Shown here: positions 1,656 to 28,326 of the stretch, piece after piece
Numbering within the stretch: position 1 is the stretch's first letter
How the letters are laid out: the number at the start of each line of letters is the position of its first letter
From: Candidatus Nanoarchaeia archaeon
GTDB lineage: Archaea > Nanobdellota > Nanobdellia > Woesearchaeales > JANQNC01
Direction of reading: 5' to 3'
DNA length: 32,000 nucleotides
NCBI GenBank assembly: GCA_028279745.1
Contig: JANQNC010000001.1
Location: 840,001 to 872,000, forward strand
The notes under the pieces: model-generated
Database searches by the model: none
What the model was told of the DNA's origin: nothing
The model's input: the letters and a program-made list of their open reading frames with translations, nothing else
Translations under genes and position numbers: made by a program

Positions 1656-2066
1656 ATGGGGGAGAAGAATTTAGAGGAGAGGAGTGATCTAGATCTAATC
1701 AGAGAGTATAGACGAGGTAATAAAGAAGCAGCAGGAGTACTTTACTTTAGATATGAAAAAGCGATAAACCATATGTCTCAGAATACAGTAAGACTTCCAA
1801 GAACAACCCCTCAAGATAAAAAAGGATTAGTTCACATGATATTTGTGAATGCGTTTCCGATGTATAAAAATAAAAACAAAGCAGGATTCCTAACTTACTT
1901 GAAAAGATGCGTAAAGAATGGTTTACTTTCTGAATATAAGAAACTTATAGCACAAAAAAGACAAGGGGAGCTAACTACAATAAGCTTGGATTCAGAAACA
2001 GGAAGACGAGCAGTTGAACAAAGATCTTATCAGATGTGGTCTTTGGGTTATGAAGGGAGGTCGTGA
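1656..2066 (+). CDS. Small helical protein resembling sigma-70/ECF region 2 only, with no region 4
   Basis: SDLDLIREYRRGNKEAAGVLYFRYEKAI resembles the sigma-70 r2.1 opening (..L......Gd..A...L...Y......). AGFLTYLKRCVKNGLLSEYKK resembles r2.2-2.4 (F.tWL..I..N...d..Rk). The ORF has its own TATA box and a K/E-rich composition. The family assignment is tentative. Confidence 0.4.
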   Translation: MGEKNLEERSDLDLIREYRRGNKEAAGVLYFRYEKAINHMSQNTVRLPRTTPQDKKGLVHMIFVNAFPMYKNKNKAGFLTYLKRCVKNGLLSEYKKLIAQKRQGELTTISLDSETGRRAVEQRSYQMWSLGYEGRS

Positions 2067-3318: not shown

Positions 3319-4074
3319 TTATAAACATTTCGCTGTTTTATCTGATAAATCCAAGAATAAGTCAAAAGGATTAATTCCTGAGTTAACTTCATTGATTACG
3401 AAGTTCAAAGCAAAGTCATGCAATCCATTCTTAGCAGGTTCTGGAACGATTAAGTTATTTGATAGATTTCCAATATTCTTTTCTTTGATAGCTCTGATCC
3501 AAGCAAGTTCAAAAGCAAACGCTTTAGCTTCCTCATCTCTACTATTGCCTAAGTTATTTGATAGAACATGACCTATTTCATGACCCATAGTAACCATCAC
3601 ATGAGCAAGATCTGAGTTCTTAACAAAAACCATCTTGGGGTGAGTGTTAATAGCAAAGCCTTCAATACCTTCATGCCAATCTTTATTGATTTCCTTCATC
3701 TTTTCTTTAGAACAGACACTGATCATAATATCTCCTGGAAGTTCTTTGTCTGTTGTAGCTTTGAAAGCTTCTTCAATCAGTTCTTTTATCTCTTCAGCAT
3801 TATCAATAAATTTAGTTTTTGATGCGTATGGGCTGATGAAGTTAGTTGCAGATGCGTAAGTTTTAGATTCAGATTGTTTTGTTGAAGAGTAAGTTTGGGA
3901 AGAGTTGTAGTTAGTTGTTTCTGATAGTGAGAAAGAGTAATCTTGACCTGTTAAAGATTCGATACTGTGGGAAGTTGGGGTGTATTGGGGCGAGGTAGGT
4001 TGTTGAGAACAAGAAGCACAATAGCTAACACTAGGTGAACTGTAATTTATTACTGAATCTATAGTGTTATACAT
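3319..4074 (-). CDS. HExxH zinc-metallopeptidase-like protein (ImmA/IrrE-like core) with an S/T/Y/Q-rich low-complexity N-terminal region
   Basis: MGHEIGHVLSNNLGNSRDEEAKAFAFELAW combines HExxH with a downstream E..A..FA, as in COG2856-type ImmA/IrrE peptidases. The first ~110 aa are S/T/Y/Q rich. Only a 24-nt, TATA-less gap separates it from msrA, which suggests co-transcription with msrA and the PRT gene. Confidence 0.55.
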   Translation of the reverse strand: MYNTIDSVINYSSPSVSYCASCSQQPTSPQYTPTSHSIESLTGQDYSFSLSETTNYNSSQTYSSTKQSESKTYASATNFISPYASKTKFIDNAEEIKELIEEAFKATTDKELPGDIMISVCSKEKMKEINKDWHEGIEGFAINTHPKMVFVKNSDLAHVMVTMGHEIGHVLSNNLGNSRDEEAKAFAFELAWIRAIKEKNIGNLSNNLIVPEPAKNGLHDFALNFVINEVNSGINPFDLFLDLSDKTAKCL

Positions 4075-4212: not shown

Positions 4213-4234
4213 GTGAGCCAAATTGTCAATCTTG

Positions 4235-5416
4235 ATGAAAAAGAAGAAACCAAAGAAATCTAAGGATAGGACTTTTTTTATTCCTGACCACTATATTGAA
4301 CCAGAAACTCACAATTCACCTTCATCTATAAGTGGAGAGGATTACGTAAGTAAAGTGGGTGAAAGATCTTTCGAGGATCTTGCTATACCTAACTTCAATG
4401 GGATGCTGGTTGTAGATCTGAACATAGCTGAAACTTTAGATAGGTTAAGATCATTACCTCCAGCAAGTACAAGAGATTTTATGACAACTAGACCAGGCTC
4501 TGGCGATAATGTGGGACACACTATTGTTGAGGGAGATCAAAACCCTTTTCTTTCTTCATTAATACCTTCAGAAGTTCTTAAAATGTTCGATATTAATATG
4601 TCGGCTCCTTGGGAGTCTGGATGGGGTGAATCTAGAGAAATATCAAAAGAAGAAGCTTGGAACATATTAGAATCAGAAGAAAATGTACCTGTTCCAGAAA
4701 AGTTTGTAGCAAACAGCAAAAACTGGAAACATCTACAAAAAAATGAGTCAAACATATGGACATACCAATTCTCAGATGTTATCTGTGGGGAAGGAAATAT
4801 GAAAGTGTTAGGGCTTCATTACATAGATGAAGGCAAATTCCCATTTATGTTTATTTTTCAAGAGTATATTGGTGTAGACCGTTTGTTTGGTGGAAGAGAA
4901 AGATACAACCATGACCATAAAAGATCTTTTACAGTATACTACTTTGATCCAAAAGGAAAAGGAAGATTTGTTTTGGGAGAACACATGTCAGAAAAGCCAC
5001 ATTATTTTGCAGGGGGTATATTTCAAAAACTGAAAAGTTTTGATTTGGAGTCAGAAGTAAAAGCTGCAATGAGATGTCATCCGGATAAGATAGCATCATC
5101 ATGGGCATATGGTAGTTATACTCTTGGATCTAGGGGTATGACAGATTATGAGATGTGTGAAGCAGGACTGAACGGGGACAGACTGTTTGAAACTTACAAC
5201 AATACAAAACTTGTACAAGATATAGAATCAAAAGTAACTGAAGAGAGAAAAGCAAGGCATGAAAGAGTGCCTTATCTTGTGATGGGGGATGATCCTAGGG
5301 ATTATGAACCAAGCTTCTCATTAAGAAATTCACAATCTTTGGGAGATTCAATTGATATCAAAGAAGTTCTATTTAACATGTTAGAGATGACTAATCCTGA
5401 AGTGTCTTATAGATAA
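4235..5416 (+). CDS. Hypothetical protein with a basic N-terminus and no recognisable domain
   Basis: This is a long ORF with native-like composition. The lysine-rich N-terminus is MKKKKPKKSKDR. I recognised no catalytic or family motif. Its stop lies 1 nt before the next ORF. Confidence 0.6.
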   Translation: MKKKKPKKSKDRTFFIPDHYIEPETHNSPSSISGEDYVSKVGERSFEDLAIPNFNGMLVVDLNIAETLDRLRSLPPASTRDFMTTRPGSGDNVGHTIVEGDQNPFLSSLIPSEVLKMFDINMSAPWESGWGESREISKEEAWNILESEENVPVPEKFVANSKNWKHLQKNESNIWTYQFSDVICGEGNMKVLGLHYIDEGKFPFMFIFQEYIGVDRLFGGRERYNHDHKRSFTVYYFDPKGKGRFVLGEHMSEKPHYFAGGIFQKLKSFDLESEVKAAMRCHPDKIASSWAYGSYTLGSRGMTDYEMCEAGLNGDRLFETYNNTKLVQDIESKVTEERKARHERVPYLVMGDDPRDYEPSFSLRNSQSLGDSIDIKEVLFNMLEMTNPEVSYR

Positions 5417-5417
5417 A

Positions 5418-6257
5418 ATGGAATTAGAAAAAACATTGAAAGAAGTACTTGAAATAAGTCCAGTAACACCTCACATTTTTCTAGAAAGTATGCTGACTGT
5501 AGAAAGAGGAGCGAGACCTGCTTCACTAGTCTTTATGGATCAGTTTAACCAAAAAAAGATGGGCAGACCAACAAGCTTGAATACAGAAGAACATCAATGG
5601 TATAGAGATGTAAAGAAAGCAGCAGAACAGATGGGGTTAAAAACATTTATCATGACAGATGTTGATGGGCCTCCAGGATCAGCAGTATTTCCAAAAGTAG
5701 TTTTCTATAAGGAAGATCATATAGGTGATAAATTCAGATCACTTGAGGAAACATACAAAGAGATCAACCAGATTAAAACTAAAGAAAACAAGTTAGATGC
5801 AAGATTTTTCCCAGCAAAATATGATGAAGGATTATTGTTTGGGATACCTTCTTGTTGTGCTTCTAACTTTATAGAAACAAGAATACAATCATTTAGCGGA
5901 GGGGGAAAAGACAGCACAATAGAAGAAGTGTTGAGAAAGAAACTTGTTAACTTAGCGGATGATGTTAATGAAGTGGGGAAATTACCTGTAAACTTTCTTT
6001 CTATGTTCTGGGCATATGAAGTATACCCTTGCAGTTTGGATTGTAAGCCTGCACAGATGAAAGGATATGAGGTATTGAGTTGTTTTGGGGATCAAAAGGT
6101 TGCAGAACTGTACAAAGATGTGATTATGGTAAATAATGCAAAAGCATTACACACAAGGTGGGCAGTTATAGAAATGCCAAAAAGAATACCGCATACAGAA
6201 GATATATACAGAAAGTTTAATCAGGGAGTTTTAGATTATATTCAAGAGAATTTCTAA
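5418..6257 (+). CDS. Hypothetical protein with a CC...C...C cysteine signature
   Basis: The ATG lies 1 nt after the upstream stop, giving an operon pair. LLFGIPSCCASNFIE and YPCSLDCKP form a four-Cys arrangement that could bind metal. I could not assign a family confidently from memory. Confidence 0.6.
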   Translation: MELEKTLKEVLEISPVTPHIFLESMLTVERGARPASLVFMDQFNQKKMGRPTSLNTEEHQWYRDVKKAAEQMGLKTFIMTDVDGPPGSAVFPKVVFYKEDHIGDKFRSLEETYKEINQIKTKENKLDARFFPAKYDEGLLFGIPSCCASNFIETRIQSFSGGGKDSTIEEVLRKKLVNLADDVNEVGKLPVNFLSMFWAYEVYPCSLDCKPAQMKGYEVLSCFGDQKVAELYKDVIMVNNAKALHTRWAVIEMPKRIPHTEDIYRKFNQGVLDYIQENF

Positions 6258-8479
6258 CCCATCGTACGACTGAGTATCTGGAATGCTAAGAAGTTAAACA
6301 ACAGTATAACAACTCCTGCAATAAAACAATACATTGAGACTGCTTTGATCTCATTCTTACCGATGGAAGCTTGTTCTCCTAATTTATCAGCACCATTCTC
6401 GATACCGTTAACTAGTACAGATATTATGTAAATCAACTGAATAACATAAACTCCCACTACAATCTGAAAGTAGAAAGTGGGCACACCATAACCAAACAAG
6501 TCAAACACGCCACCAATAGCAACATCACTAGAAGTCTGTTCAGCAAGTCTATCAGTCAACTGGCCCATAATAAAAGTAACCATGGAAGTGATGCCTATAA
6601 CAATACCTGCAATAGCAGGTGTCATGAAATTAATCTGAGCCTTCAAACTTGAAATGGTATCAGATAATAGATCCTTTAATCTTTCATCAACCTTATGCAT
6701 CTCTTTAATATAATTTGAAATGTTGATCAAAGCAGAAGCTGCTACTTGTGGACCTTTCTTAGCTGATTCAACAAGAACTTTCATAGAAGATTCAACCAAA
6801 GATGAAGGAAAATCTTTCAAAGCACCATACTGAACATTAAACACAGCTTGTTCAACACCCAAACCTAATCGAGTAATGTTATTGCTTACGGTCTTAAAGA
6901 ACTTACCTGAAACACTGTTAGGCATAGAATCCGCGACCTTGCTGAAAGCAATCTCAGCAGGTAAACCATCACCAAGTCTATTCCCTAATGTGAACAAAGC
7001 GGAAGCGAACTCTTGTTCTAGCTGCTTGCTTCTGTTTCTTATCTCCATAACCTTGCCAGAAGTCAACTTAAAGAAAATACCAATACATAACCCAATACCT
7101 AAAACGACAAGAATACTAAATAAAGAAGAACCGAGACCAAACGGCCCGACAACCTGTCCATAATTGGGGCTGTCTTCTTTAGTTATCTCTCTATAATCCA
7201 ATAGACACAAACCTTTCTTCTCATTACCTTCAATATCGCCACCATACTTAATACCATCACCTCTGCTTGTTGTGCAATAATCAAACTCTAGCCCAGGATT
7301 CAAAAAGTGTAAAATCAAAGGAGTGTAGCCAATAATCAAGAAAATAACAAGAACTATCAAACTAAAGTACAAAGGGTTAATACCGATCTGAAGATTACCT
7401 TTGCCGATCAAAACCTTTTTTTGCTTTTTCATCTCAGGATTATACTCACTGATGTCAGTATCACCATAACCTGCAGGTCTAGTCGACAATATCTTCTTAC
7501 CTAAGAAAAATACTGCGGCAGGGAAACCAATATTGTATAATGCCATGACGTGAAACCATTCAACACCCTCCATAAAACTCAATACTAAAGGTAAAATAAC
7601 CAAACCAAGAATAGGCAAGACAATCCCAAGCATGTTCATAATAGTAAGAGGTGATTTTAAGTTTTGAGCGTAATGAAGCATCTTCTCATAAGTACCTTCA
7701 AGCATAACTGTCAAGGATTTATCCAAAGAACCAACCCGTCTATCTTCGCTGGTTTCGTATAAAGAAGATTCAATCAAGTGAACAGACTCAATAAATTCAT
7801 CATTAAAACCCTGCCATCTTTTCAAGTAGGAGTCCATACTGTCGCTGATATTGCTGAACTGTTCAGTCTCAACATCCCAGATAACTTTTCTTAGATCAAG
7901 ACTTAAAGGAGGACCGATGTGATCTGCTGCAAACCTAACTGCAAGTTCAAAGTTAGATGTGTGACGCATATAAGTAACCATGTAAAATATACAAAGAACC
8001 ATCTGATTGCTGGCTTTCATACGCCATTGAGTAGATAAAGTAAAAGGTAACTTACCTAGCGGCCCAATCATTATCAGACCAATCAAAGCAAAGAAAATTA
8101 TGAAAAACATATCCTGGAACAAGATAAAGCTAACAACAGACGCAGCAACAATAAATGCTAAAGGAAACAGATAACTAAAAGAGTTAACACCTGTAGGAGT
8201 TACATCTAAGTGACAAGTTTTAATCGCTTCTTCCATAGCCGGCAAATTTTTTTCAGAAACAGGCATCTTAAGAACTCTCTCAGCAAGGCCACAGCCTTTC
8301 TCATAGAGAGAAAGACGCCTAGGCAACAAGTCTTTCCTAAACTCATCATACTCACGAGAAGAAATCTTATCTGTGTCAACAGAACCTTCAGGAATACCAG
8401 CAGGTTCAGGAGCCATCTGACTAGCTATCTTTTTCTTGAACTCCTCAGCCATCTTGTCATAGTCCTTCATTTCAGGCAT
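6254..8479 (-). CDS. Polytopic membrane platform protein of the FlaJ/TadC/PilC (T2SS-F) type
   Basis: The protein is 741 aa and contains two soluble helical segments, each followed by TM bundles. These segments are ELAVRFAADHIGPPLSLDLRKVIWDV...MLEGTYEKMLHYAQNLKSPL and EFASALFTLGNRLGDGLPAEIAFSKVAD...MKVLVESAKKGPQVAASAL. That arrangement matches duplicated T2SS-F domains. It is the last gene of the ATPase operon. Confidence 0.7.
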   Translation of the reverse strand: MPEMKDYDKMAEEFKKKIASQMAPEPAGIPEGSVDTDKISSREYDEFRKDLLPRRLSLYEKGCGLAERVLKMPVSEKNLPAMEEAIKTCHLDVTPTGVNSFSYLFPLAFIVAASVVSFILFQDMFFIIFFALIGLIMIGPLGKLPFTLSTQWRMKASNQMVLCIFYMVTYMRHTSNFELAVRFAADHIGPPLSLDLRKVIWDVETEQFSNISDSMDSYLKRWQGFNDEFIESVHLIESSLYETSEDRRVGSLDKSLTVMLEGTYEKMLHYAQNLKSPLTIMNMLGIVLPILGLVILPLVLSFMEGVEWFHVMALYNIGFPAAVFFLGKKILSTRPAGYGDTDISEYNPEMKKQKKVLIGKGNLQIGINPLYFSLIVLVIFLIIGYTPLILHFLNPGLEFDYCTTSRGDGIKYGGDIEGNEKKGLCLLDYREITKEDSPNYGQVVGPFGLGSSLFSILVVLGIGLCIGIFFKLTSGKVMEIRNRSKQLEQEFASALFTLGNRLGDGLPAEIAFSKVADSMPNSVSGKFFKTVSNNITRLGLGVEQAVFNVQYGALKDFPSSLVESSMKVLVESAKKGPQVAASALINISNYIKEMHKVDERLKDLLSDTISSLKAQINFMTPAIAGIVIGITSMVTFIMGQLTDRLAEQTSSDVAIGGVFDLFGYGVPTFYFQIVVGVYVIQLIYIISVLVNGIENGADKLGEQASIGKNEIKAVSMYCFIAGVVILLFNFLAFQILSRTMG

Positions 8480-9213
8480 CTTAGTAAATCTCCATGAGTT
8501 TTTTTATTGCTGAATATTAAGTCAGCCATCCAAACACTGGGCTTATCACCCTTGTAATCTGTAACTTTCCCACCTGCTTCCTTAACAGCAATTATCCCCG
8601 GTGCAATATCCCATGGCTTAACATTATGACATAAATAAAAGTCACAACCCCCATTTGCAACAAGAAGCGTGTCAAGAGCAGCACAACCTAAAGTCCTTAA
8701 ACTGAAAGTTTCATTTGCAACCTTAACAATCTGATCTGAAATGTTCTTATGGTCTTTTAGATGGGTCGAAGTAACAAATAAAGCGTCTTCAAAACTTTTA
8801 TCAGACACATGAACTTTCTTATCATTGATAAAACAGCCTTTGCCTTTTTCAGCAACTAAAAACATGTCAAGTGCAGGAAGGTTCATAACGCCCAGAATAA
8901 TCTCTTCATTTTTCATCAAAGCGATATTAACCCCAAATAGAGGTATGCCTTTCATAAAATTGTGAGTGCCGTCAACAGGATCAATAAACCAAGTATATTC
9001 AGAACCTCTATTTTCTCTATGGGACTCTTCAGAAACTATATTGTGATCGGGGAAGTGAGACTTAATGATCTCTTTAATCAGTTTTTCAGATGCTTTGTCA
9101 GTCTCGGTAACGAAATCCTGGTGACTCTTCTCATGGATCTCATGTTTTTTATGAAAGTTATTCATAACTAAGTTCCCGGCTTCTAACGCAGCCTTTACCA
9201 TTACCTCTTTCAT
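8467..9213 (-). CDS. suhB: Inositol-monophosphatase family protein (archaeal IMPase/FBPase-type)
   Basis: It has the FVTETD, WFIDPVDGTHNF and KPWDIAPG motifs of the IMPase/CysQ superfamily. The start codon forms an ATGA overlap with the ATPase stop (9210-9213). Its 3' end overlaps the platform gene start by 13 nt. Confidence 0.85.
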   Translation of the reverse strand: MKEVMVKAALEAGNLVMNNFHKKHEIHEKSHQDFVTETDKASEKLIKEIIKSHFPDHNIVSEESHRENRGSEYTWFIDPVDGTHNFMKGIPLFGVNIALMKNEEIILGVMNLPALDMFLVAEKGKGCFINDKKVHVSDKSFEDALFVTSTHLKDHKNISDQIVKVANETFSLRTLGCAALDTLLVANGGCDFYLCHNVKPWDIAPGIIAVKEAGGKVTDYKGDKPSVWMADLIFSNKKTHGDLLRCLK

Positions 9214-11510
9214 TTTTTGTTAACACTTTCTTTCTTAACTTCACGTTTAACCCAAACATCCCAATCTTCAAAGATACGTTTAGGGTCTAAGCTTCCAACT
9301 TCATCCTGGATCTTTTCAGAAACCTTGTGGAACTGATCATTACACTTAATTACAAATGGAGCTTCCAGCAGGTCAAGATTATTAGATTGATGAGCATAAT
9401 TAACAACAGCTTCTTTTGTTTTTGCCCTTAACAAAACATTACCCCACAAAGCATCCCAATCAGTAGCCCATTCTTTAACATTGCCTGCAATAGATTTTAA
9501 TATTTCAGAATCTCCGTTAATCAGATCAGGAGTTGTATCTAATTCATCTTTACCTGGGTTATATTTTAACAGGTCGACAAAACCTCCTTCTGCCATAGGA
9601 TCTTCTTCCCAGAACTTCCTAACTTCAGTTATTTGAGTTACCCTTCTCATCTTATGAAGACCATCAGCACTTCTAACTGGGTTTGCAATAATCACAGCAT
9701 CAGTAGCTTTGAAAGAAGTTTTAGGCACACCTAGATCATTAACAACCCTATCGTAAATACCGTAAGGAGAGTCACCATGGATAGTTCCAGCAACAACATT
9801 AGCAGCAGCGCCAACTCTCATAGCTTCATACAAAGCAACAGCTTCTTTACTTCTAACTTCTCCAACAATCAATGCACTGTCACCAAGTCTTAACGTAGCT
9901 CTGATACCGTCAGCAGCATTCATCTCACCACTTTCAGCAGATGCAAAAGCAGAAGCAACCTTCATGGGTTGAATGTTATAACCTAATTCTCTTAAAGGAG
10001 ACGTTGGAAGTTCTAAAGTATCCTCGATAGTTATAATCCTGTAACGTCTCATCATCTCAACAAGAATACTTGCAAGCAATGAAGACTTACCTGAACTTCT
10101 TGTCCCACAGATAAGCATAGTCTTGTTTCCATCAATCAAGAAACTCCACAAACCTGCAGCAATGGGGTTAATGGTTTTGTAGTGCATGAAAAGAGGGAAA
10201 GTCCAAGGCTTATCCCTGTGTCTTCTAAAACTAAAACCTAATCCAAAAGGGTTTAATGGTTCAGTTATTGTACTAACCCTGCACCTGGCTCCAGGGAATT
10301 CAATCTCAGTATCAAGAATTGGATGAGCTTCATCTAAAGGCCTGCCAGAAATCATCCTTAACTTTGATGCCCAAGACTCACTCTCGGGAATGGTTGGATA
10401 TATGTTGGTATTACAGTCCCCAAATTCACCATGAACAACGAATAAAGGAATCCTTCCAAGAGGGCTGTTAACACTTACATCTTGGATCTGTTCATCTTGA
10501 AGCAGAACTTCAATCAAACCAAAACCAACAGTATACCTAACTAATATTTCTGAAAGCTGATTCATCTCTTTATGAGACATACGAACATTTCTACTCTTCA
10601 CTAACTCTTCAATTAAATCTAGCCCAACATGAGTAAACACTTCCCTCATCCTTTGAGGATCAACAAACTCTTCTTTAGTTGGTTTGTGTTCAGCCATAAC
10701 TCTACGAGCCATATCTAAAATTTCATATTTATCTTCAGTAAGCTTGAATTCGGGAGGCATCATATGATACAAAGTTTCTACTGTGCCAGGAACGTCAAAA
10801 ACAGTAACTTCAATATCATCATTAACAAGGTAAGAGTTTATTTCTTCACCATTAGTAGGATAATCAGCCATCAACTTAGTAAACATAAAATCAGGCTTAA
10901 TTGCAGGCCTGAAAAGCTTCCTGTAAATACTTCTGTCACCAAGCATGTAACCTGCAACATCGGGCAACGCAACACCAATAAGCTTGGTTCTTTCAAAACT
11001 CCTTATAAGCCACATAACAATACTCATGAAATTCTTTATACCTGCAGCAGTGCTTTGATCAGCAACTTTCTCTAAATGCATCCTTTCATGTCTAAGAATC
11101 CTTTTTAACTCAACATAAGCACCAATCGGATCAGACTTCAGCAAACTATAGACAACTATCTGTAAATCTTGATACCACTTGTTTGCAAAACTAGAACAGT
11201 TTGGGTTAGAAGCAATCTTACCATAACTAAACATCTCTTTGTTAGACACAACGGTGTTGAACAAAACACCAATCTCTTTCAAAAGACCAACCTGGTTCAA
11301 ATCATATTCATAATCTTTTCTTTGATTAAACACAATCTTGGTTATTGTGCCAGAACTTGCTAATTCATCAACAACACGAGACATGATAAGAGGATTGTCC
11401 TCAAGGCTAGGGATGATATTAAGGCTTTCACAGTTAAATCTAAGTATAGCTTCACCGCCTTCTCTAACTATTTCACCCTTTAAAGAACCAACATTTTGTG
11501 AATCAACCAT
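9210..11510 (-). CDS. Type II/IV secretion-family ATPase (FlaI/PilB/VirB11-like) with a long N-terminal extension
   Basis: Motifs present are Walker A (CGTRSSGKSSLL), Asp box (IITIEDTLEL), Walker B (ALIVGEVRSKEA) and His box (VAGTIHGDSP). Walker A lies roughly 470 aa into a 766-aa protein, so the N-terminal region is unusually long. Confidence 0.85.
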   Translation of the reverse strand: MVDSQNVGSLKGEIVREGGEAILRFNCESLNIIPSLEDNPLIMSRVVDELASSGTITKIVFNQRKDYEYDLNQVGLLKEIGVLFNTVVSNKEMFSYGKIASNPNCSSFANKWYQDLQIVVYSLLKSDPIGAYVELKRILRHERMHLEKVADQSTAAGIKNFMSIVMWLIRSFERTKLIGVALPDVAGYMLGDRSIYRKLFRPAIKPDFMFTKLMADYPTNGEEINSYLVNDDIEVTVFDVPGTVETLYHMMPPEFKLTEDKYEILDMARRVMAEHKPTKEEFVDPQRMREVFTHVGLDLIEELVKSRNVRMSHKEMNQLSEILVRYTVGFGLIEVLLQDEQIQDVSVNSPLGRIPLFVVHGEFGDCNTNIYPTIPESESWASKLRMISGRPLDEAHPILDTEIEFPGARCRVSTITEPLNPFGLGFSFRRHRDKPWTFPLFMHYKTINPIAAGLWSFLIDGNKTMLICGTRSSGKSSLLASILVEMMRRYRIITIEDTLELPTSPLRELGYNIQPMKVASAFASAESGEMNAADGIRATLRLGDSALIVGEVRSKEAVALYEAMRVGAAANVVAGTIHGDSPYGIYDRVVNDLGVPKTSFKATDAVIIANPVRSADGLHKMRRVTQITEVRKFWEEDPMAEGGFVDLLKYNPGKDELDTTPDLINGDSEILKSIAGNVKEWATDWDALWGNVLLRAKTKEAVVNYAHQSNNLDLLEAPFVIKCNDQFHKVSEKIQDEVGSLDPKRIFEDWDVWVKREVKKESVNKK

Positions 11511-11610
11511 TAATCTACCCCTCTTTTTTATAGTTATAACTACTGAAAAATATCCATGAATGCTAATATTTAAATATTCCTAAAATAGAATGCCTTTTTA
11601 GGAGGAAAAA
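11511..11610. promoter_or_regulatory. Divergent promoter region between the ATPase operon and the coiled-coil genes
   Basis: A/T boxes on both strands are TTTTTTATAGTTATAAC (11525-11541, for the minus gene) and AATATTTAAATATT (11565-11578, for the plus gene). AGGAGG at 11600-11605 sits 5 nt before ATG 11611. Confidence 0.4.
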
Positions 11611-12096
11611 ATGCCAGAACAGCAACCAATGCAGCCACCACAACCGATGGGGCAAGAAACACCGGCAGCACAGCCAGAAGAAAAGAAATCAATAGGTGCA
11701 TCGCTATTCGGGCCAAAAAAACCAGAAGCTCCAGCACAACCACAAACATCTTCAGAAGTAATTGAGATGGGTCAAAGATTAAGATTAATAGAAGAAAGGT
11801 TCGCAAACTTAAGAAACAAAGTGGGAGTAATGGATCAGAACATGCTTAATAATTCAAGAGAAGAGAAAAAAGATATACAAGGAGTAAATGCAGAGTTAGA
11901 TGAGATAAACAGAACAATCAACGACCTAAAAGACAAGATGAAGCTGATGATAGAAGAGATAAAAACAATGGCAAGAAATGAAGATTTGCAAACCATAAAA
12001 AAGTATTTAGAGTACTGGCAGCCAGTCGAGTTTGTGACAAGGAAAGAACTATTAGATGTTGTTAAAAGATTGAAGGAAGATAGACAGAACATTTAA
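11611..12096 (+). CDS. Coiled-coil protein with a P/Q-rich N-terminus
   Basis: A strong SD (AGGAGG) precedes the start. The N-terminus is MPEQQPMQPPQPMGQETPAAQPEE, followed by ~110 aa of heptad-like K/E/L/I sequence. No enzymatic motif is present. Confidence 0.6.
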   Translation: MPEQQPMQPPQPMGQETPAAQPEEKKSIGASLFGPKKPEAPAQPQTSSEVIEMGQRLRLIEERFANLRNKVGVMDQNMLNNSREEKKDIQGVNAELDEINRTINDLKDKMKLMIEEIKTMARNEDLQTIKKYLEYWQPVEFVTRKELLDVVKRLKEDRQNI

Positions 12097-12142
12097 ATAC
12101 TAAACAAAACAAAATAATATAAAAAAAGAAGGTGATAATATA

Positions 12143-12862
12143 ATGGCAGATGCATCAATTCTAGATCAAGTATTGCAGATGAAACAGCAAGGGCTTTCAG
12201 ATAATCAGATAATCCAAACATTACAAAGAGCAGGTAATAACCCACAGCAAATATTTGATGCAATGAGTCAAGCAGAAATAAAAGGAGGAGTGCAAGGAGT
12301 GCCTCCGCAGGAGATGCAGATGCAACAACAACCAGAAAACCCGATGCAGATGCAACAACAAGAACAGATGCCTCAATATCAACAACCACCGATGCAAGGT
12401 GGAGTAAGCAATGAAGAAGTAGAAGCGATAGCAGAATCAATAATAGATGAAAAATGGGACGACTTGATGAAAAGCATGAGCAAAGTGATAGCATGGAAAG
12501 AAGATATGGATGGAAAATTAGCAGAGATGGATCAGAAATTCAACGACTTACAGAAAAACTTTGAAGAATTACACAAATCAGTATTAGGAAAAATATCAGA
12601 CTATGACAGAACAATGACAGATGTGGGTACTGACTTAAAAGCAATGTCAACAGTGTTCAAAAAGATACTGCCTGGTTTTATGGAGACAGTGGGGGAGTTA
12701 TCTCAAATAAGAGATGATCTATCGGGAGTTCCAGGATCAAAGAAGCCGAAGAAAGCCGAACCTGTAGAACCTAAACCATTGTTTGATGAAAAAACTGAAG
12801 TAGAAGAGAAGGAAGAAAAACTTTCTGATAAAGATAAAAAATCAATAGAAGATAACATCTAA
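12143..12862 (+). CDS. Coiled-coil protein with an N-terminal small helical module, a Q/M/P-rich linker and a K/E-rich tail
   Basis: An SD-like AAGGTGA lies upstream. The N-terminal module ILDQVLQMKQQGLSDNQIIQTLQRAGNNPQQIFDAM resembles the repeat modules in the tail of the first ORF. The linker is PPQEMQMQQQPENPMQMQQQEQMPQYQQPPMQ, followed by a coiled coil. Confidence 0.6.
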   Translation: MADASILDQVLQMKQQGLSDNQIIQTLQRAGNNPQQIFDAMSQAEIKGGVQGVPPQEMQMQQQPENPMQMQQQEQMPQYQQPPMQGGVSNEEVEAIAESIIDEKWDDLMKSMSKVIAWKEDMDGKLAEMDQKFNDLQKNFEELHKSVLGKISDYDRTMTDVGTDLKAMSTVFKKILPGFMETVGELSQIRDDLSGVPGSKKPKKAEPVEPKPLFDEKTEVEEKEEKLSDKDKKSIEDNI

Positions 12863-12867
12863 TTCTT

Positions 12868-13446
12868 TTATTTTGCGTCTGGTCCGCCGGCCATAAGCCT
12901 GACCGTGAAAGAAGCAATCAATAGGATAAATAATAACCCAACAACTTTAGGATTAAACAAAACAGACCATACATTATCTGTAAAAGTTTCAGGCTGTTTA
13001 GGTGTGATATTAGCTATCTCTTGAGCAGGAGTTCCATTAGCCGTTAAAGATAACAAACCAGGACCATAAACCTTACCTAAACCAGCTATCAATATTATTA
13101 CACCAAAGATAAGAATAAACCAATGGATGGTGTCCCATTTTGACATAACACCAATAACACTCTTTTCAGGAGCGCCCATAAACCTATACATCATCAAAAC
13201 AAACATGATGAATATTATCAACACAACAAACCAAGGCGCCATAAAATTGATCATCTCGATCATCTTAGGACTAAACAACATGATGCCTGCAATACAGATT
13301 GCGATCAGAGAATTAATTCCTCTATCAGTGTTTTTACCAAATGGTTTGATAAACTCAAGAATTGCAAAAGTAACAGCAAACACAAGAATAAAAGGGAAAA
13401 CTACTGAGAAGTGTTGCAGTAACCCGATATCAAGAAGTGTCGCCAT
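12868..13446 (-). CDS. Polytopic membrane protein, paralogue 1 of a tandem family
   Basis: I place the start at ATG 13446 (MATLLDIGLL...). The longer track ORF would overlap the upstream gene. The N-terminal helix VVFPFILVFAVTFAILEFIKPFGKN matches the signature of the two upstream paralogues. It has about 5 predicted TM helices. Confidence 0.6.
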   Translation of the reverse strand: MATLLDIGLLQHFSVVFPFILVFAVTFAILEFIKPFGKNTDRGINSLIAICIAGIMLFSPKMIEMINFMAPWFVVLIIFIMFVLMMYRFMGAPEKSVIGVMSKWDTIHWFILIFGVIILIAGLGKVYGPGLLSLTANGTPAQEIANITPKQPETFTDNVWSVLFNPKVVGLLFILLIASFTVRLMAGGPDAK

Positions 13447-13471
13447 TTTAAAAATCAAAGCATGAAGGAAA

Positions 13472-14116
13472 TTATTTCTTTCCTCCAGCACTAAGCATCT
13501 CACCTAACTTTTCGAATGCACTCTTTTCGTCCTTTTCTTTAGGCTCACTAATAATGAACCAAACCAATAAACCAAACATCAAGATGACCAGTATCATCCC
13601 CCTGTTCGTGTCATCGTTCAAAAAGTCAAGCCATCCAGGAAGATTGTATCCTCCTAAGATTCCTGCTGATGCCAAAAAGATAAGCACAACTACGATAAAA
13701 GATATTACGGCTACCACACCAGCTAAAGGCGTGCCAGCAATATTGATTTCAGGTCCTAGAATACCTATAAGCATCATGACCATTATGATCAATACCGCAA
13801 TAACTGAAATCTGAGGAAGTGCGTTGTTAATAACTTCAACTACATCAGGAAAGTTAGTTCCTGCAAGTTTAGCGTCATACTTATTTTCTAAAGTGCCTAG
13901 TGTGACGTGAGGAATAACTACAAGCAAACCAATAATCAATGCAATTATGACATTAAAATTCTTTTGTGGTTTGCCGTCATCAGTCTTACCTAAAACTTTA
14001 GTTTTCTGTAAAACTGCAAACATTATTGTAAATATAAGTAAAAATGGTAATAAAACATCTGCGAGACCTAAATCATTAAGGCTTCGAATTCCTTGTACAA
14101 GTATATTTTGTGGCAT
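13472..14116 (-). CDS. Polytopic membrane protein, paralogue 2 of a tandem family
   Basis: The signature is LGLADVLLPFLLIFTIMFAVLQKTKVLGK. AGGAGG lies 8 nt upstream of the ATG (14125-14130, minus strand). The C-terminal tail is K/E rich. Confidence 0.65.
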   Translation of the reverse strand: MPQNILVQGIRSLNDLGLADVLLPFLLIFTIMFAVLQKTKVLGKTDDGKPQKNFNVIIALIIGLLVVIPHVTLGTLENKYDAKLAGTNFPDVVEVINNALPQISVIAVLIIMVMMLIGILGPEINIAGTPLAGVVAVISFIVVVLIFLASAGILGGYNLPGWLDFLNDDTNRGMILVILMFGLLVWFIISEPKEKDEKSAFEKLGEMLSAGGKK

Positions 14117-14161
14117 CTAAACAACCTCCTTTAAGTATAAATTAACTCACAATCTGTATAT

Positions 14162-14179
14162 AAAAAGCTTTCGCTTTTT
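14162..14179 (-). terminator. Hairpin AAAAAGC-tttc-GCTTTTT directly after the stop of paralogue 3
   Basis: A perfect 7-bp inverted repeat with a 4-nt loop sits just downstream of the stop codon at 14182-14184. The 3' arm supplies a U5 run on the minus-strand transcript. Confidence 0.35.
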
Positions 14180-14181
14180 AA

Positions 14182-14754
14182 CTACTCACTCTCTTCCTTC
14201 TTTTCTTTCTTTTTACTAGGGTCTCTTGTGATGTACATCATGAAGATAACAATCACAACAATCAAAATAATAGATGCTAAAGCATTCGTACTCCAATTAT
14301 CACGTATGAACTCCCACAACGGACCCAGCCATCCAAGCGCGTTAAGGAATATAAGCACAACACCAATACCCATAACTACCATGAAAAAGATCATCAAAGG
14401 CTGATCTTTAGCAAGTTTAATCTCTTCAGTACCTCTAAACGTACCTATCAACATAAGGAAACATACTGCGATCAGTACAAGTAAAACTACATTAGCTAGT
14501 GCTTGATTGATAACTGCAACAAGCTTTGAAGAAGCAACTACAAAAAACCCAATACAAAATGCAACTAATGAATTAAGATTACGTTTAGGGAATTCAACAC
14601 CATCCTTGTCTTTTTCAACACCTAAAACTCTTGTTTTTTCAAGAATTGCAAACATTATTGTAAATACTAATAGAAATGGAAGTACAACATCGTAAATTCC
14701 TATCTTGTAGAAGAAATTAATCACACCTCTAAAAGTAGATTCTTGAGCTTGCAT
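14182..14754 (-). CDS. Polytopic membrane protein, paralogue 3 of a tandem family
   Basis: The signature is IGIYDVVLPFLLVFTIMFAILEKTRVLGVEK. The C-terminal tail is K/E rich (DPSKKKEKKEESE). It has its own TATA box. Confidence 0.65.
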   Translation of the reverse strand: MQAQESTFRGVINFFYKIGIYDVVLPFLLVFTIMFAILEKTRVLGVEKDKDGVEFPKRNLNSLVAFCIGFFVVASSKLVAVINQALANVVLLVLIAVCFLMLIGTFRGTEEIKLAKDQPLMIFFMVVMGIGVVLIFLNALGWLGPLWEFIRDNWSTNALASIILIVVIVIFMMYITRDPSKKKEKKEESE

Positions 14755-14777
14755 ACTCTATTTATAAAGAGTTAGGG

Positions 14778-14786
14778 TATATAAAG
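14778..14786 (-). promoter_or_regulatory. TATA box (minus-strand CTTTATATA) for paralogue 3
   Basis: The box is centred ~28 nt upstream of ATG 14754, consistent with a leaderless transcript. Confidence 0.4.
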
Positions 14787-14799
14787 TTTTCTATGATTA

Positions 14800-15120
14800 T
14801 TATATTAGGTTCTTGAAGAAGATTAAGTAGTACAATACATATATTATTATGAATAAAACAATGAATGACAACCATTTACCAACAAAACCTGCTTCTCTAA
14901 TCTTGAAAAGTCTATAGATTGAATGTAAAATGTGTTTGATATGAGGCTTAATGAATTCAGTAACTGTAATGAAAGCTATCCCTATAGAGAGCATTACAAG
15001 AATGATCTTTATGTGTAAAGGGTTATTAGAACGCATTATGATTCGTATGACAATTTCTTCTACTAATCCTAATACTAAGAAAGTAGCTATCAAGAACATG
15101 TAAGATTGAAGTTTACCCAT
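14800..15120 (-). CDS. Small hypothetical membrane protein (~3 TM helices)
   Basis: The 106-aa ORF has hydrophobic segments (FLIATFLVLGLV, IILVMLSIGIAFITV, LSFIVLFIIIYVLYYLIFF). A TATA-like CATTTAAATA at 15141-15150 lies ~25 nt upstream on the minus strand. Confidence 0.45.
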   Translation of the reverse strand: MGKLQSYMFLIATFLVLGLVEEIVIRIIMRSNNPLHIKIILVMLSIGIAFITVTEFIKPHIKHILHSIYRLFKIREAGFVGKWLSFIVLFIIIYVLYYLIFFKNLI

Positions 15121-17426: not shown

Positions 17427-18329
17427 TTATCTCTTTTTTAGAAATACAAATCCAAGTACAGCAACAGCAATAACACCTATAATTGCGCTTGTATTGAACT
17501 CAGGAATCTCTTCTCCAGGAAAGCTTTCAGAAACACATAGACACTCGTTTGTGCAAATGTAACCAGGGTCACAAGTTTGTTCAGTGTCGCAGTCTTCTCC
17601 AGGATCTATGTCTTCATTACCACAGATAGGCATGCAATCAAATCCGTCACAAAACTCATCAGGTTCACAGTCGTTATCATCTAAACATTCTTCAGTGAAC
17701 TCACAAATACATTCGTTTGTGCAAGTATATCCAGGATCACAAGTTTGTTCAGTGTCGCAGTCTTCTCCAGGATCTATGTCTTCATTGCCACAGGTAGGGA
17801 GACAATCTCCACCATCGCAAAAATACCCTTCATTGCAACCAACTTGGTAAGGGAAGATAGGATTTGGAATTTCGCCACATTCAGGACCAACTCTGCCACA
17901 TCCATGCACGCCGTTAATTTCTGCGCAAACACCTTCATCAAGGTATTGGTCATCACCTTCACAATAATAAAAATCATATGTTGAACAGTTTTCTTTTAGG
18001 TAAGCACCAACACCTCCTGCAATGCTAGACTGAACTACACATTCACCTTCAACACAGATGTTAGGGATAGCCCATACTTCTGGACTGTCAGGGTTACAAG
18101 TTCCACCACCGCACTGGGTTCTTTCAGTGTTAAGAAACGGGCCACCTACACAAAACATGCCTTCGCCGCTAGAAACATTAACAACAACATCAGTATATTC
18201 GCACTGACCTTCATTACAAACTTCAGTAGTACATTCATTCTCATCTTGACAGTGTGCATCAATTTCACAAAAAGCAAAAACTGCAGAAGATGCAAAAAGA
18301 ATTGTTAATAATAACATGATTGGTCTCAT
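17427..18329 (-). CDS. Secreted Cys-rich repeat protein with a PEF-CTERM-type sorting signal
   Basis: The signal peptide is MRPIMLLLTILFASSAVFA. Cys density is very high, with CGNEDIDPGEDCD units. The C-terminus EEIPEFNTSAIIGVIAVAVLGFVFLKKR combines a PEF motif, a TM helix and a basic tail. Confidence 0.75.
   Translation of the reverse strand: MRPIMLLLTILFASSAVFAFCEIDAHCQDENECTTEVCNEGQCEYTDVVVNVSSGEGMFCVGGPFLNTERTQCGGGTCNPDSPEVWAIPNICVEGECVVQSSIAGGVGAYLKENCSTYDFYYCEGDDQYLDEGVCAEINGVHGCGRVGPECGEIPNPIFPYQVGCNEGYFCDGGDCLPTCGNEDIDPGEDCDTEQTCDPGYTCTNECICEFTEECLDDNDCEPDEFCDGFDCMPICGNEDIDPGEDCDTEQTCDPGYICTNECLCVSESFPGEEIPEFNTSAIIGVIAVAVLGFVFLKKR
17545..17798. repeat. Intragenic direct duplication with a 168-bp period (units 17545-17630 and 17713-17798)
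   Basis: The units are ~86 bp and nearly identical. A 50-bp exact match, TCACAAGTTTGTTCAGTGTCGCAGTCTTCTCCAGGATCTATGTCTTCATT, occurs at 17569-17618 and 17737-17786. It encodes CGNEDIDPGEDCDTEQTCDPGY(T/I)CTNEC twice. Confidence 0.9.
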
Positions 18330-18428: not shown

Positions 18429-20219
18429 ATGAAAAGAAGAACACATACATGCGGAGAATTAACAAAAGACGAGATAGACAACGAAATAACCCTAAATGGA
18501 TGGGTTGCAACAAATAGGGATCATGGCGGAGTAATATTCATAGATCTAAGAGACAGATATGGGATAACTCAAATAGTCATAAATCCAGAAGATAAAGAAC
18601 TATTCAAAATAGCTGAGTCACTAAGAAGAGAAGACGTAATCTCAGCAATAGGAAAAGTAAGAGCAAGGCCTGAAGGGATGGCAAACAAAAACATATCTTC
18701 TGGAGAAGTAGAAATAGTTGTTTCAGAGATAGAAATTCTAAACAAATCATTAACACCACCAATAGAAGTTGATGACAATATAGAAGCAAACGAAGAACTA
18801 AGATTACAGTACAGATTCATAGACCTAAGAAGACCAGTAATGCAGGAAAGACTGATAAAAAGACACAAAGCAGCAATGGCAGCAAGAAAGTCATTATCAG
18901 ACGAAGGATTCCTAGAAATAGAAACACCATTACTAGTAAAAGCAACACCAGAAGGGGCAAGAGATTATACTGTGCCATCAAGGGTGCACCCAGGAAGTTT
19001 TTATGCATTACCACAATCACCACAGTTATACAAGCAACTGTTAATGGTTGCAGGTTTTGACAAGTATTTCCAACTACCAAGATGTCTAAGAGATGAAGAT
19101 CTGAGGGCAGACAGACAGCCCGAGTTCACACAGATAGACATTGAGATGAGTTTCCCAACACAAGATGAAATATTCAGAGTGGGGGAAAAGCTGGTTAAGG
19201 ATATTTTCAAAGAAACAATCGGAATGGATGTAGAAACACCATTCCCAAGACTTCCTTATGCAGAATCAATGGCAAGATTTGGGAATGATAAACCAGACCT
19301 AAGATTTGGTCTTGAGTTGACTGAAGTAACAGACATAGTAGTTAAGTCAGACTTTGGAGTTTTCAAAGATGTTAAAGAAAACGGTGGGATTGTTAAGTGT
19401 ATAAACCCTGAAAAAGAGCTAGGAAGAAAAGAAATAGACAACTATATCAAACACTGTCAAGAATTTGGAGCAAAAGGGATGGCATGGATGAGAGTAACAG
19501 AGAATGGGTTGGAGAGCAATATAGCAAAATATTTCCCAGAAGATGTGCAGAAAGAATTGATAGATGCGACAGAAGCAAAACCTGGAAGTATATTGATGTT
19601 CATAGCAGACAAACCGAAAAAATGCAACGATGTAATATCAAGACTTAGGCTAAAATTAGGAGAAGATCTTGAGCTATATGATAAAAAAGATTTCAAACTA
19701 TGTTGGATAGTTGACTTCCCACTATTCGAGTTTAACGAGGATGAAGACAGATGGGAGCCAGCGCATCACATGTTTACAATGCCAAAAGAAGAATGTCTGC
19801 AGTACATAGAAGACGCACCAGAAAAAGTATTTGCGACATGTTATGATATGGTATTGAATGGAGTAGAACTTGCTTCAGGATCAATAAGGGTGCATGATCC
19901 AGAAATACAAGAAAGGATAATGAAAAGAGTGGGATTCCCAAAAGAAAAAGCAGAAGAAAGATTTGGATTTTTATTGAATGCATTCAAGTATGGAGCACCG
20001 CCGCATGGTGGATTTGCAATAGGGTTTGATAGGCTAGTCGCAATGATGAACTATACAAACGACATCAGAGAAGTGATAGCATACCCTAAGAACAAAAGCG
20101 CGATAAACCCAATGGATGGATGCCCAACACCTGCAGATGATGAAATGCTGAAAGAACTAAAAATAAAATTAGACAAGGTGGAAAAAAATGAAAAAAAAGA
20201 GGATGAAAAAACCGAGTAA
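18429..20219 (+). CDS. aspS: Aspartyl-tRNA synthetase with bacterial-type architecture (insertion domain present)
   Basis: The protein is collinear with E. coli AspRS along its full length. Matching segments include TPEGARDYTVPSRVHPGSFYALPQSPQLYKQLLMVAGFDKYFQ, CLRDEDLRADRQPEFTQIDIEMSF and GFAIGFDRLVAMM. At ~597 aa it includes the bacterial insertion domain. I start it at ATG 18429 rather than GTG 18423. Confidence 0.95.
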   Translation: MKRRTHTCGELTKDEIDNEITLNGWVATNRDHGGVIFIDLRDRYGITQIVINPEDKELFKIAESLRREDVISAIGKVRARPEGMANKNISSGEVEIVVSEIEILNKSLTPPIEVDDNIEANEELRLQYRFIDLRRPVMQERLIKRHKAAMAARKSLSDEGFLEIETPLLVKATPEGARDYTVPSRVHPGSFYALPQSPQLYKQLLMVAGFDKYFQLPRCLRDEDLRADRQPEFTQIDIEMSFPTQDEIFRVGEKLVKDIFKETIGMDVETPFPRLPYAESMARFGNDKPDLRFGLELTEVTDIVVKSDFGVFKDVKENGGIVKCINPEKELGRKEIDNYIKHCQEFGAKGMAWMRVTENGLESNIAKYFPEDVQKELIDATEAKPGSILMFIADKPKKCNDVISRLRLKLGEDLELYDKKDFKLCWIVDFPLFEFNEDEDRWEPAHHMFTMPKEECLQYIEDAPEKVFATCYDMVLNGVELASGSIRVHDPEIQERIMKRVGFPKEKAEERFGFLLNAFKYGAPPHGGFAIGFDRLVAMMNYTNDIREVIAYPKNKSAINPMDGCPTPADDEMLKELKIKLDKVEKNEKKEDEKTE

Positions 20220-20685
20220 AGGCGCAGTACTTGTAATGCTGGCAGCAATACTAATAATGGCAATAGTGGTGTCATTGTGGGGATTAGGAAGAGTTTACTT
20301 TGAAGAACCACAAGACATAGGATTAGTCCAACAAGAAGCAAGGCAAGATGCAGGAGCGCAAATAAGCTGCTCATCAACAAACCTGGGATTTAAGATACTG
20401 TCTGCAGAATATGTCGGAAGAGATATAGAAGTGCTATTAGAAAATCAAGGTTCACAAACATTAGATAGAATACAGGTGACCCTTAAAGGAGAAGAGGAAG
20501 AGGAAACATTAACAATAGCGCAAGAGATACCTGGATTTGCATTAAAGACAGTACACATAACGCCAAATCCAATCATCGGATCTGTAAGAGACATATCAAT
20601 GATGCCTGTACTGACAGCGGGAACAGTGAAAGTTCCATGCACAAACAAAGAAAGAACAAAAGAAGTTCCGCCAGTACCTAGATAA
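20188..20685 (+). CDS. Small N-terminally anchored protein, possibly with a class III (prepilin-like) signal
   Basis: AGGTGG lies 6-7 nt upstream of the ATG. The N-terminus is MKKKRMKKPSKG/AVLVMLAAILIMAIVVSL: a basic region, then K-G, then a hydrophobic helix. A beta-rich ~130-aa domain follows (DIEVLLENQGSQTLDRIQVTL). The start lies inside the aspS 3' end, in the +1 frame. Confidence 0.55.
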   Translation: MKKKRMKKPSKGAVLVMLAAILIMAIVVSLWGLGRVYFEEPQDIGLVQQEARQDAGAQISCSSTNLGFKILSAEYVGRDIEVLLENQGSQTLDRIQVTLKGEEEEETLTIAQEIPGFALKTVHITPNPIIGSVRDISMMPVLTAGTVKVPCTNKERTKEVPPVPR

Positions 20686-28304: not shown

Positions 28305-28326
28305 AAGAGGAAAATTATTTCCTCTT
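28305..28326 (-). terminator. Hairpin AAGAGGAAA-atta-TTTCCTCTT spanning the stop codon of the PEF-CTERM gene
   Basis: A perfect 9-bp inverted repeat (28305-28313 / 28318-28326) is followed on the minus-strand transcript by T-rich sequence (GATTTTAATTC). Confidence 0.3.

Follow-up and report, generated by a model that had tools for sequence, protein, structure and literature searches.

A divergent type IV filament motor pair with conserved, unassigned neighbours in a woesearchaeal archaeon

We analysed a 32-kb window (the whole stretch of DNA considered here, about 36% GC) from contig JANQNC010000001.1 of a Candidatus Nanoarchaeia archaeon. Within it, a block of about 9 kb (6254–15120) encodes a secretion ATPase and a predicted membrane platform of the type IV filament (TFF) kind, which we call the motor, together with two coiled-coil proteins (CC1 and CC2) and three membrane paralogues (PAR1, PAR2 and PAR3). 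The motor, CC and PAR modules are separate transcription units on alternating strands. Archaeal housekeeping genes occur in the same window (NucS, a HerA-like protein, GatB, AspRS, tRNA-guanine transglycosylase and translin), and no tRNA genes were found in its 32 kb. An earlier annotation made from the letters alone (the sequence-only reading) had listed open reading frames (ORFs) that are all present at the same coordinates, and had taken the organism for a DPANN-type archaeon, which fits the annotation of the platform's relatives as Woesearchaeota or Nanoarchaeota. Protein families were screened against Pfam (2025), NCBIfam (2026) and the sequences of solved structures (PDB). The related loci used for comparison were chosen by platform similarity as the best 80 per collection scan, with more distant lineages outside the sample.

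The ATPase gene (9210–11510, minus strand) encodes 766 aa and matches Pfam T2SSE (PF00437) at 54.3 bits (cutoff 24.9, E 1.1e-14). NCBIfam matches are to FlaI (NF058587 equivalog, 4.8e-36, 124.6 bits, below the cutoff of 550) and TadA (5.7e-30, also below cutoff), and the best relatives of solved structure are A. fulgidus GspE2 (afGspE2; 2OAP, 6e-27), CpaF (8e-22) and S. acidocaldarius FlaI (5e-18). Walker A (GTRSSGKS, residues 469–476), the Asp box (IEDT, 495), Walker B (IVGEVR, 548) and the His box (GTIHG, 575) align with the same motifs of afGspE2; with all of them present, the enzyme should be catalytically competent. The T2SSE match above cutoff and the intact motifs bear out the sequence-only reading, which had named a FlaI/PilB-type ATPase here. 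That reading had also remarked on an unusually long N-terminal region with Walker A about 470 aa in, and rightly so: the core comprises residues ~290–655, leaving an N-terminal extension of ~290 aa and a C-terminal tail of ~110 aa. Neither the first ~290 nor the last ~110 residues gave a match in searches of solved structures and families. As orthologues in other species are of equal length (751–771 aa), the long N-terminus is a trait of the family. Each archaeal TFF subsystem is reported to have its own additional domains at the N- and C-termini of the ATPase, and these have been proposed as interfaces for accessory proteins (bioRxiv 10.64898/2026.04.22.720090).

The platform gene (6254–8479, minus strand, 741 aa) has more than 2900 homologues, the top 120 of which are 51–60% identical over the full length. 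Its product has about eight hydrophobic segments, two cytoplasmic helical bundles and, between hydrophobic helices, a small strand-containing segment (~356–425). An AlphaFold model built with 30 orthologues (pLDDT 78, pTM 0.74) places the bundles at ~144–302 and ~449–604, each followed by hydrophobic helices. Foldseek found no global match to this model in the PDB, and local matches of about 115 residues to the cytoplasmic domains of EpsF (2VMB, 3C1Q, 2VMA) and OutF (5NBG), with a probability of 0.98–0.99, a TM-score (target) of 0.73–0.77 and an rmsd of 2.8–3.0 Å. The family profile did not match any PDB sequence, and T2SSF was matched in 5 of 30 orthologues, below threshold (best E 0.0014). 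The gene adjoins the ATPase gene in 72/80 Woesearchaeota species loci. From the predicted GspF-like fold, the sub-threshold T2SSF matches in orthologues and the adjacency to the ATPase gene, we accept the protein as a very divergent platform of the FlaJ/TadC/PilC type. The FlaJ/TadC-type label given in the sequence-only reading thus holds on these grounds, though not through any direct Pfam or NCBIfam match, and its view of ATPase and platform as a TFF motor pair is supported.

CC1 (11611–12096, plus strand, 161 aa) and CC2 (12143–12862, plus strand, 239 aa) are soluble proteins. They are P/Q-rich coiled coils, as had been described, but they are not transcribed divergently from one another: both lie in tandem on the plus strand, and it is from the ATPase gene alone that they diverge. 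An alignment of 32 CC1 orthologues shows a P/Q-rich N-terminus, a KKxLFG-type motif and a conserved C-terminal KYxxxWxPVxFVT; against Pfam and NCBIfam, CC1 gave generic coiled-coil noise alone. CC2 (33 orthologues) consists of a UBA-like three-helix N-terminal domain, a P/Q-rich linker and a conserved coiled-coil domain of ~110 aa. Weak matches to UBA, UBA_3, Raf1_HTH or DUF7626 occur in 6–19 of the 33 members, similarity to ArlX/FlaX stays at E 0.07–0.09 (Pfam ArlX at E 0.086 in one member), and the PDB profile matches are generic coiled coils. The two proteins are only weakly related to each other (hhalign probability 20%, E 0.0012; BLASTP not significant), so we do not claim paralogy. We considered FlaC/D/E, ArlX, ESCRT-III and PspA-like proteins as identities for CC1 and CC2 and rejected them, the similarity being generic coiled-coil noise with no Snf7 or PspA match; the "MALFGKKK" N-terminus does resemble the N-termini of ESCRT-III proteins. 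An N-terminal motif of the type M-A-L-F-x-x-K-K was seen in 26/32 CC2 proteins and, as KKGLFG, in 18/37 CC1 proteins. It also occurs in ~40% of ATPase orthologues by eye (19/64 by a strict regular expression) and is missing from the window ATPase. A common function in docking or membrane binding is possible, as is coincidence.

Between CC1 and the ATPase gene lies a divergent intergenic region of 100 bp (11511–11610), in which TATA-like elements can be read from the sequence in both directions, TTTAAATA upstream of CC1 and TATAAAAA on the minus strand upstream of the ATPase gene. This is a putative divergent promoter region.

The three PAR genes follow on the minus strand, with PAR3 (14182–14754, 190 aa) as the first gene of a PAR3-PAR2-PAR1 unit and a TATA-like element, TTTATATA, ~25–35 nt upstream of it. 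PAR2 (13472–14116) encodes 214 aa, with a subfamily-specific loop that carries a conserved IPH motif. PAR1 (12868–13446) encodes ~192 aa from the ATG at 13446; its open frame reaches a GTG at 13503, and the ATG (MATLLD...) is most likely the true start because orthologues begin likewise (MATFLD...). All three proteins have five hydrophobic helices and BLASTP relates them (PAR2–PAR3 8e-22, PAR1–PAR3 2e-12), which confirms that they are three tandem paralogues with about five transmembrane (TM) helices each. They fall into three orthologous subfamilies, the order PAR3-PAR2-PAR1 being kept wherever subfamilies could be assigned, and the copies stand in same-strand tandem in every related locus that was long enough (31 genome and 80 metagenome loci). 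Four tandem PAR genes, with an extra PAR2-like copy, were seen in L013, L053, L069, L073, L075 and L104. PAR2 has 535 homologues, of which all named ones belong to Woesearchaeota or Nanoarchaeota. The PAR2 model (pLDDT 77) consists of five long helices and has no fold match in the PDB by Foldseek (best E 0.86, with GPCR and channel noise at E > 0.8). The PAR family (43 members) did not match Pfam or NCBIfam. Two identities were tried and dropped. Split fragments of the platform are excluded by hhalign, which finds no relation between the PAR family and the platform (probability 0.1%). As for a prepilin peptidase of family A24, there is no GxGD, PAR1 and PAR3 do not share the residue D91 of PAR2, and Peptidase_A24 has no match among the 43 members. 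The sequence-only reading could not assign the accessory families, and all five proteins indeed remain without a family in Pfam, NCBIfam and PDB sequences.

We assessed whether these genes travel with the motor in two samples. Among 45 platform-anchored loci from Woesearchaeota species with enough upstream sequence, the full block (PAR3-PAR2-PAR1/CC2-CC1/ATPase-platform) is present in 30, CC1 with the motor in 4, and the motor alone in 11. Almost every deep branch of the platform neighbour-joining tree includes loci with the full block, at least nine independent disruptions can be counted, and CC1 adjoins the ATPase gene in 34 of the 45 informative loci, 4 of them without PAR genes. In 27 PAR2-anchored metagenome loci with at least 4 kb beyond PAR1, the ATPase is present in 19 and the CC genes in 22; the PAR triad stands alone in 5, and PAR and CC occur without the motor in 3. 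Three long contigs obtained from PAR2 homologues (L082, L083 and L085) all carry T2SSE and a ~740-aa protein beside the PAR genes. In L083 (JGI Ga0453684_0000016, 4524–12843), platform and ATPase genes are inverted and followed by three PAR genes, an ACT-domain gene and, on the far side, genes of CC2 and CC1 size, so that all three modules stay together despite the reshuffled order. Insertions between modules with linkage kept were found in L095, L101, L104, L111, L117 and L146. The paralogue and CC families are therefore syntenic with FlaI/FlaJ homologues in related genomes (30/45 and 19/27), an outcome on which the sequence-only reading had staked its proposal, although the test has low power. 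We conclude that synteny supports a functional link of CC and PAR to the motor and does not establish it.

Conservation differs among the modules. In related loci, the ATPase has a median identity of 60% to its window counterpart, the platform 52%, AspRS 57% and translin 44%, compared with 33–46% for the PAR proteins and 35–41% for CC1 and CC2; as the loci were picked by platform similarity, only the relative values within shared loci are to be trusted. Judged by these alignments, the motor is under constraint equal to that of a housekeeping enzyme, an unusual property in pilus machinery, and we consider this the most interesting quantitative feature of the locus.

Two scans for proteins with a class III signal (a short basic N-terminus, a [KR][GA] site, a hydrophobic helix of ~20 residues and no further TM helix) found none in 6254–15120, in agreement with the remark that nothing in the operon resembles a filament subunit. 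That remark does not extend far past the block: 5 kb beyond it, the class III signal scan picked out an archaeal type IV pilin-like ORF (20188–20685, plus strand, 165 aa) that overlaps the 3' end of the AspRS gene by 32 nt. Its N-terminus (MKKKRMKKPSKG-AVLVMLAAILIMAIVV) has a K-G site followed by a single hydrophobic helix of 20 residues, after which comes a globular domain in which two Cys are conserved. A word-indexed search returned 0 relatives and exhaustive HMMER returned 19, most of which begin KKGISPLIATVLIVGF (KKGISPLIATV), the canonical archaeal pilin N-terminus. In the alignment, the K-G of the ORF is in register with the cleavage site of these relatives. Two relatives reach 22–23 bits against Pfam Pilin_N (cutoff 25.2), and the ORF itself has no Pilin_N match. 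The relatives are stand-alone genes away from ATPase genes; the closest ones (P0248–P0250) are, like the ORF, without SPLIATV. We regard 20188–20685 as a candidate divergent member of the archaeal Pilin_N-type family, with a predicted cleavage site, and as a candidate substrate of the motor. Pilins directly beside the motor are rare in the related loci, the cases being L052, where the gene directly upstream of the ATPase encodes 416 aa starting MSIKKTAFSKKSQAAIEFLSTYGWAFIVIL, and L047, where a classical pilin of 186 aa is encoded beside the ATPase.

Several other features of the window deserve description. An inositol monophosphatase family gene (8467–9213, minus strand, 248 aa; Pfam Inositol_P 6.9e-63), which the sequence-only reading did not mention, separates the ATPase gene from the platform gene. 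Its ends run 4 nt into the former and 13 nt into the latter, and because of these overlaps it is probably co-transcribed with both. No such gene occupies the junction in any of the 72 related loci with the adjacent pair, which marks it as an insertion specific to this lineage. Different genes are occasionally inserted between ATPase and platform in other species (for example in L033, L058, L104 and L146). At the other end of the block, a hydrophobic ORF of 106 aa (14800–15120, minus strand) had been counted as a small 3-TM member of the cluster, which we do not uphold. It has no relative in 160 related loci and no entry in the protein collection, NCBI and Logan call a 50-aa gene on the plus strand (14951–15103) in its place, the PAR3–translin gap in other species is ~50–300 bp, and the ORF is separated from PAR3 by the TATA-like element of the latter. 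It is doubtful as a gene: it probably lies outside the system and is possibly not a gene at all.

On the platform side, an SSB-like OB-fold gene (1104–1469) lies 4.8 kb from the platform gene. The six genes in between are PMSR and five without a family (weak sub-threshold matches); the three that were tested (3319–4074, 4223–5416 and 5418–6257) have no relatives in the related loci, and the stretch may be an insertion. An ORF at 1656–2066 (plus strand, 136 aa) has weak matches to region 2 of bacterial sigma-70/ECF sigma factors (best E 6.5e-05, with scores well short of the cutoffs), which would be odd in an archaeal genome and may be spurious. Cysteine-rich secreted proteins are encoded at 17427–18329 and 28315–28845 (both minus strand), and each ends in EEIPEF, a TM helix and KKR/KRK; these tails resemble the PEF-CTERM (archaeosortase-type) sorting signal (TIGR03024, 14–15 bits against a cutoff of 23). 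The protein of 17427–18329 contains a near-perfect internal repeat, CGNEDIDPGEDCDTEQTCDPGY.CTNEC.C. Many records that bear the block, L004, L008 and L009 among them, are titled "uncultured Methanosarcinales archaeon" (binchicken co-assemblies), which looks like mislabelled taxonomy given the Woesearchaeota-type block. Viral contigs scanned with platform and PAR2 held no relatives of either, and hence we see no sign of a mobile or viral origin.

The reading that we favour, with modest confidence, is that the block encodes a Woesearchaeota-specific variant of the archaeal TFF machinery, with its pilins encoded elsewhere and with lineage-specific accessory proteins. The ATPase would act as a hexamer docked on the polytopic platform, and ATP hydrolysis would power the removal of pilins with class III signals from the membrane and their assembly into a filament at the cell surface; these pilins would come from elsewhere in the genome, 20188–20685 being one candidate. 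CC1 and CC2 would likely dock on the long N-terminus of the ATPase and, by analogy with ArlX or ArlCDE, serve as a cytoplasmic scaffold or regulator. In the membrane, the PAR proteins would assemble into a hetero-oligomeric accessory to this machine. Of the partner candidates, CC1 and CC2 have the better linkage, and a role of the PAR triad as a membrane accessory is plausible. Several results weigh against this reading. The platform itself has no match to Pfam T2SSF (PF00482) at E ≤ 10 or to NCBIfam, and hhalign of its two halves gives no similarity and thus no detectable internal duplication. The N-terminus of the candidate pilin is degenerate and without the SPLIATV motif, and the window proteins scanned included no prepilin peptidase. 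Neither CC nor PAR genes lie near the motor in 11/45 loci, and 5/27 PAR triads have no motor within 10 kb. Genes that are clearly unrelated to the system, used as controls, also stay close: the SSB-like gene lies within 2.5 kb after the platform in 36/61 loci (59%) and translin within 1.5 kb before PAR3 in 20/45 (44%), so that the CC/PAR–motor synteny of 67–81% is a modest excess over a baseline of 44–59%, and synteny alone is weak evidence.

The main rival is an ordinary TFF motor pair that simply sits beside unrelated genes, the CC pair and PAR triad belonging to one or two other envelope or cytoplasmic systems and the adjacency reflecting an ancestral Woesearchaeales gene order that has yet to decay. 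Unrelated neighbours are kept at similar rates, the modules are transcribed separately from alternating strands, and they do come apart (11/45 motor only, 4/45 CC1 and motor only, 5/27 PAR only, 3/27 PAR and CC only); with CC in the central position, exactly these patterns would be expected from single neutral breakpoints. We hold such inherited adjacency to be less likely than the TFF variant with accessory proteins. Linkage of the modules exceeds both baselines and outlasts the inversion and reshuffling of L083 as well as the six loci with insertions, CC1 and the ATPase gene have a short putative divergent promoter region in common, and all five families are apparently confined to the lineage that has this unusual motor.

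The sequence-only reading had proposed a non-canonical TFF-derived machine, for example an attachment or transfer apparatus. Spelled out, such a machine would make no filament, and its ATPase and platform would drive a membrane device of PAR and CC proteins, for instance for host attachment or for the transfer or uptake of material. What is sound in it is the motor pair with unassigned, syntenic neighbours; the filament-less part has no positive support. The 9-kb block here and most related loci do lack a pilin, conservation of the motor at housekeeping level is unusual for a pilus system, and no counterpart is known for the extra ATPase domains or the five lineage-specific partners. Pilin genes of archaeal TFF systems are, however, often stand-alone or distant from the ATPase and platform genes (PMC4858521; bioRxiv 10.64898/2026.04.22.720090), split loci being known for subsystem 4E and the bindosome (bioRxiv 10.64898/2026.04.22.720090), and no cognate pilins have been identified for the nanoarchaeal ATPases of subclade 4F (PMC4858521). 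A pilin missing from the operon therefore does not imply a machine without a filament. The pilins beside the ATPase in L052 and L047, the pilin-family ORF 5 kb away and the report that Woesearchaeota metagenome-assembled genomes (MAGs) carry flaK and have highly expressed archaellin/pilin genes (PMC11606122) point the same way, and no result indicates a function for the PAR proteins. We consider a filament-less machine improbable. A further possibility, that the pair is the archaellum motor (ArlI/ArlJ) of this organism, would agree with FlaI as the best NCBIfam name and with the routine annotation of flaI and flaJ in Woesearchaeota MAGs (PMC11606122). It is contradicted by the equivalog score of 124.6 bits against 550, by solved FlaI being a weaker match than afGspE2 and CpaF, and by the lack of ArlH (KaiC-like), ArlF, ArlG and archaellin beside the pair here or in L082, L083 and L085. 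The CC2–ArlX similarity is likewise negligible (E 0.07–0.09), and archaellum ATPases are described as the minimal forms, lacking additional domains (bioRxiv 10.64898/2026.04.22.720090). We regard an archaellum as effectively excluded.

Among known systems, the split-locus archaeal TFF systems (clade 4 subclades such as 4E/4F, Makarova et al. 2016, and the Sulfolobales bindosome BasEF) come closest to a TFF variant with distal pilins, as they have the same adjacent pair of ATPase and TadC/FlaJ-like platform, pilins or other substrates encoded elsewhere, lineage-specific accessory proteins and extra ATPase domains. The accessory set found here, three 5-TM and two coiled-coil proteins, matches none of those described (PMC4858521; bioRxiv 10.64898/2026.04.22.720090), and the divergence of the platform puts it out of reach of Pfam T2SSF. 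The haloarchaeal subsystem 4F locus also encodes a dedicated intracellular coiled-coil protein, arCOG07564, for which a regulatory role has been suggested (PMC4858521); the 4F loci carry pilins and an S-layer-like/adhesin gene that the present block lacks. For the ATPase core, afGspE2 and Caulobacter CpaF (the Tad pilus ATPase) are the closest solved relatives and share all four motifs. Compared with afGspE2, the window ATPase has ~190 more N-terminal residues as well as the C-terminal tail of ~110 aa, and unlike in the Tad pilus, there are no TadZ, Rcp or Flp-type genes near it. The archaellum ATPase and platform (ArlI/ArlJ) likewise have soluble coiled-coil partners alongside (ArlX or ArlC/D/E), and by analogy CC1 and CC2 could fill an ArlX- or ArlCDE-like scaffold role. 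ArlX has an N-terminal TM helix, which CC1 and CC2 lack, the locus has none of ArlH, ArlF, ArlG and archaellins, and the FlaI and FlaX equivalog scores are far below cutoff.

For genome mining, the locus carries two cautions: in archaea, an operon without a pilin is no evidence for a pilin-less machine, and within one DPANN order the neutral baseline of synteny is high. Woesearchaeota are among the most widespread uncultivated DPANN archaea, and the locus defines for them a lineage-wide motor pair of which standard domain models recognise half, the platform being invisible to Pfam. Its five lineage-restricted partner candidates are concrete targets for multimer prediction, metatranscriptomics and cryo-electron tomography (cryo-ET). 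There is also an outside chance that PAR, CC and motor together form one Woesearchaeota-specific envelope machine in which the motor has been recruited for a task other than a conventional pilus, or for one besides it. If so, it might be, for example, a gated membrane conduit for host attachment or the uptake of host material, and the housekeeping-level conservation of the motor would then mean that it is indispensable to a host-dependent way of life.

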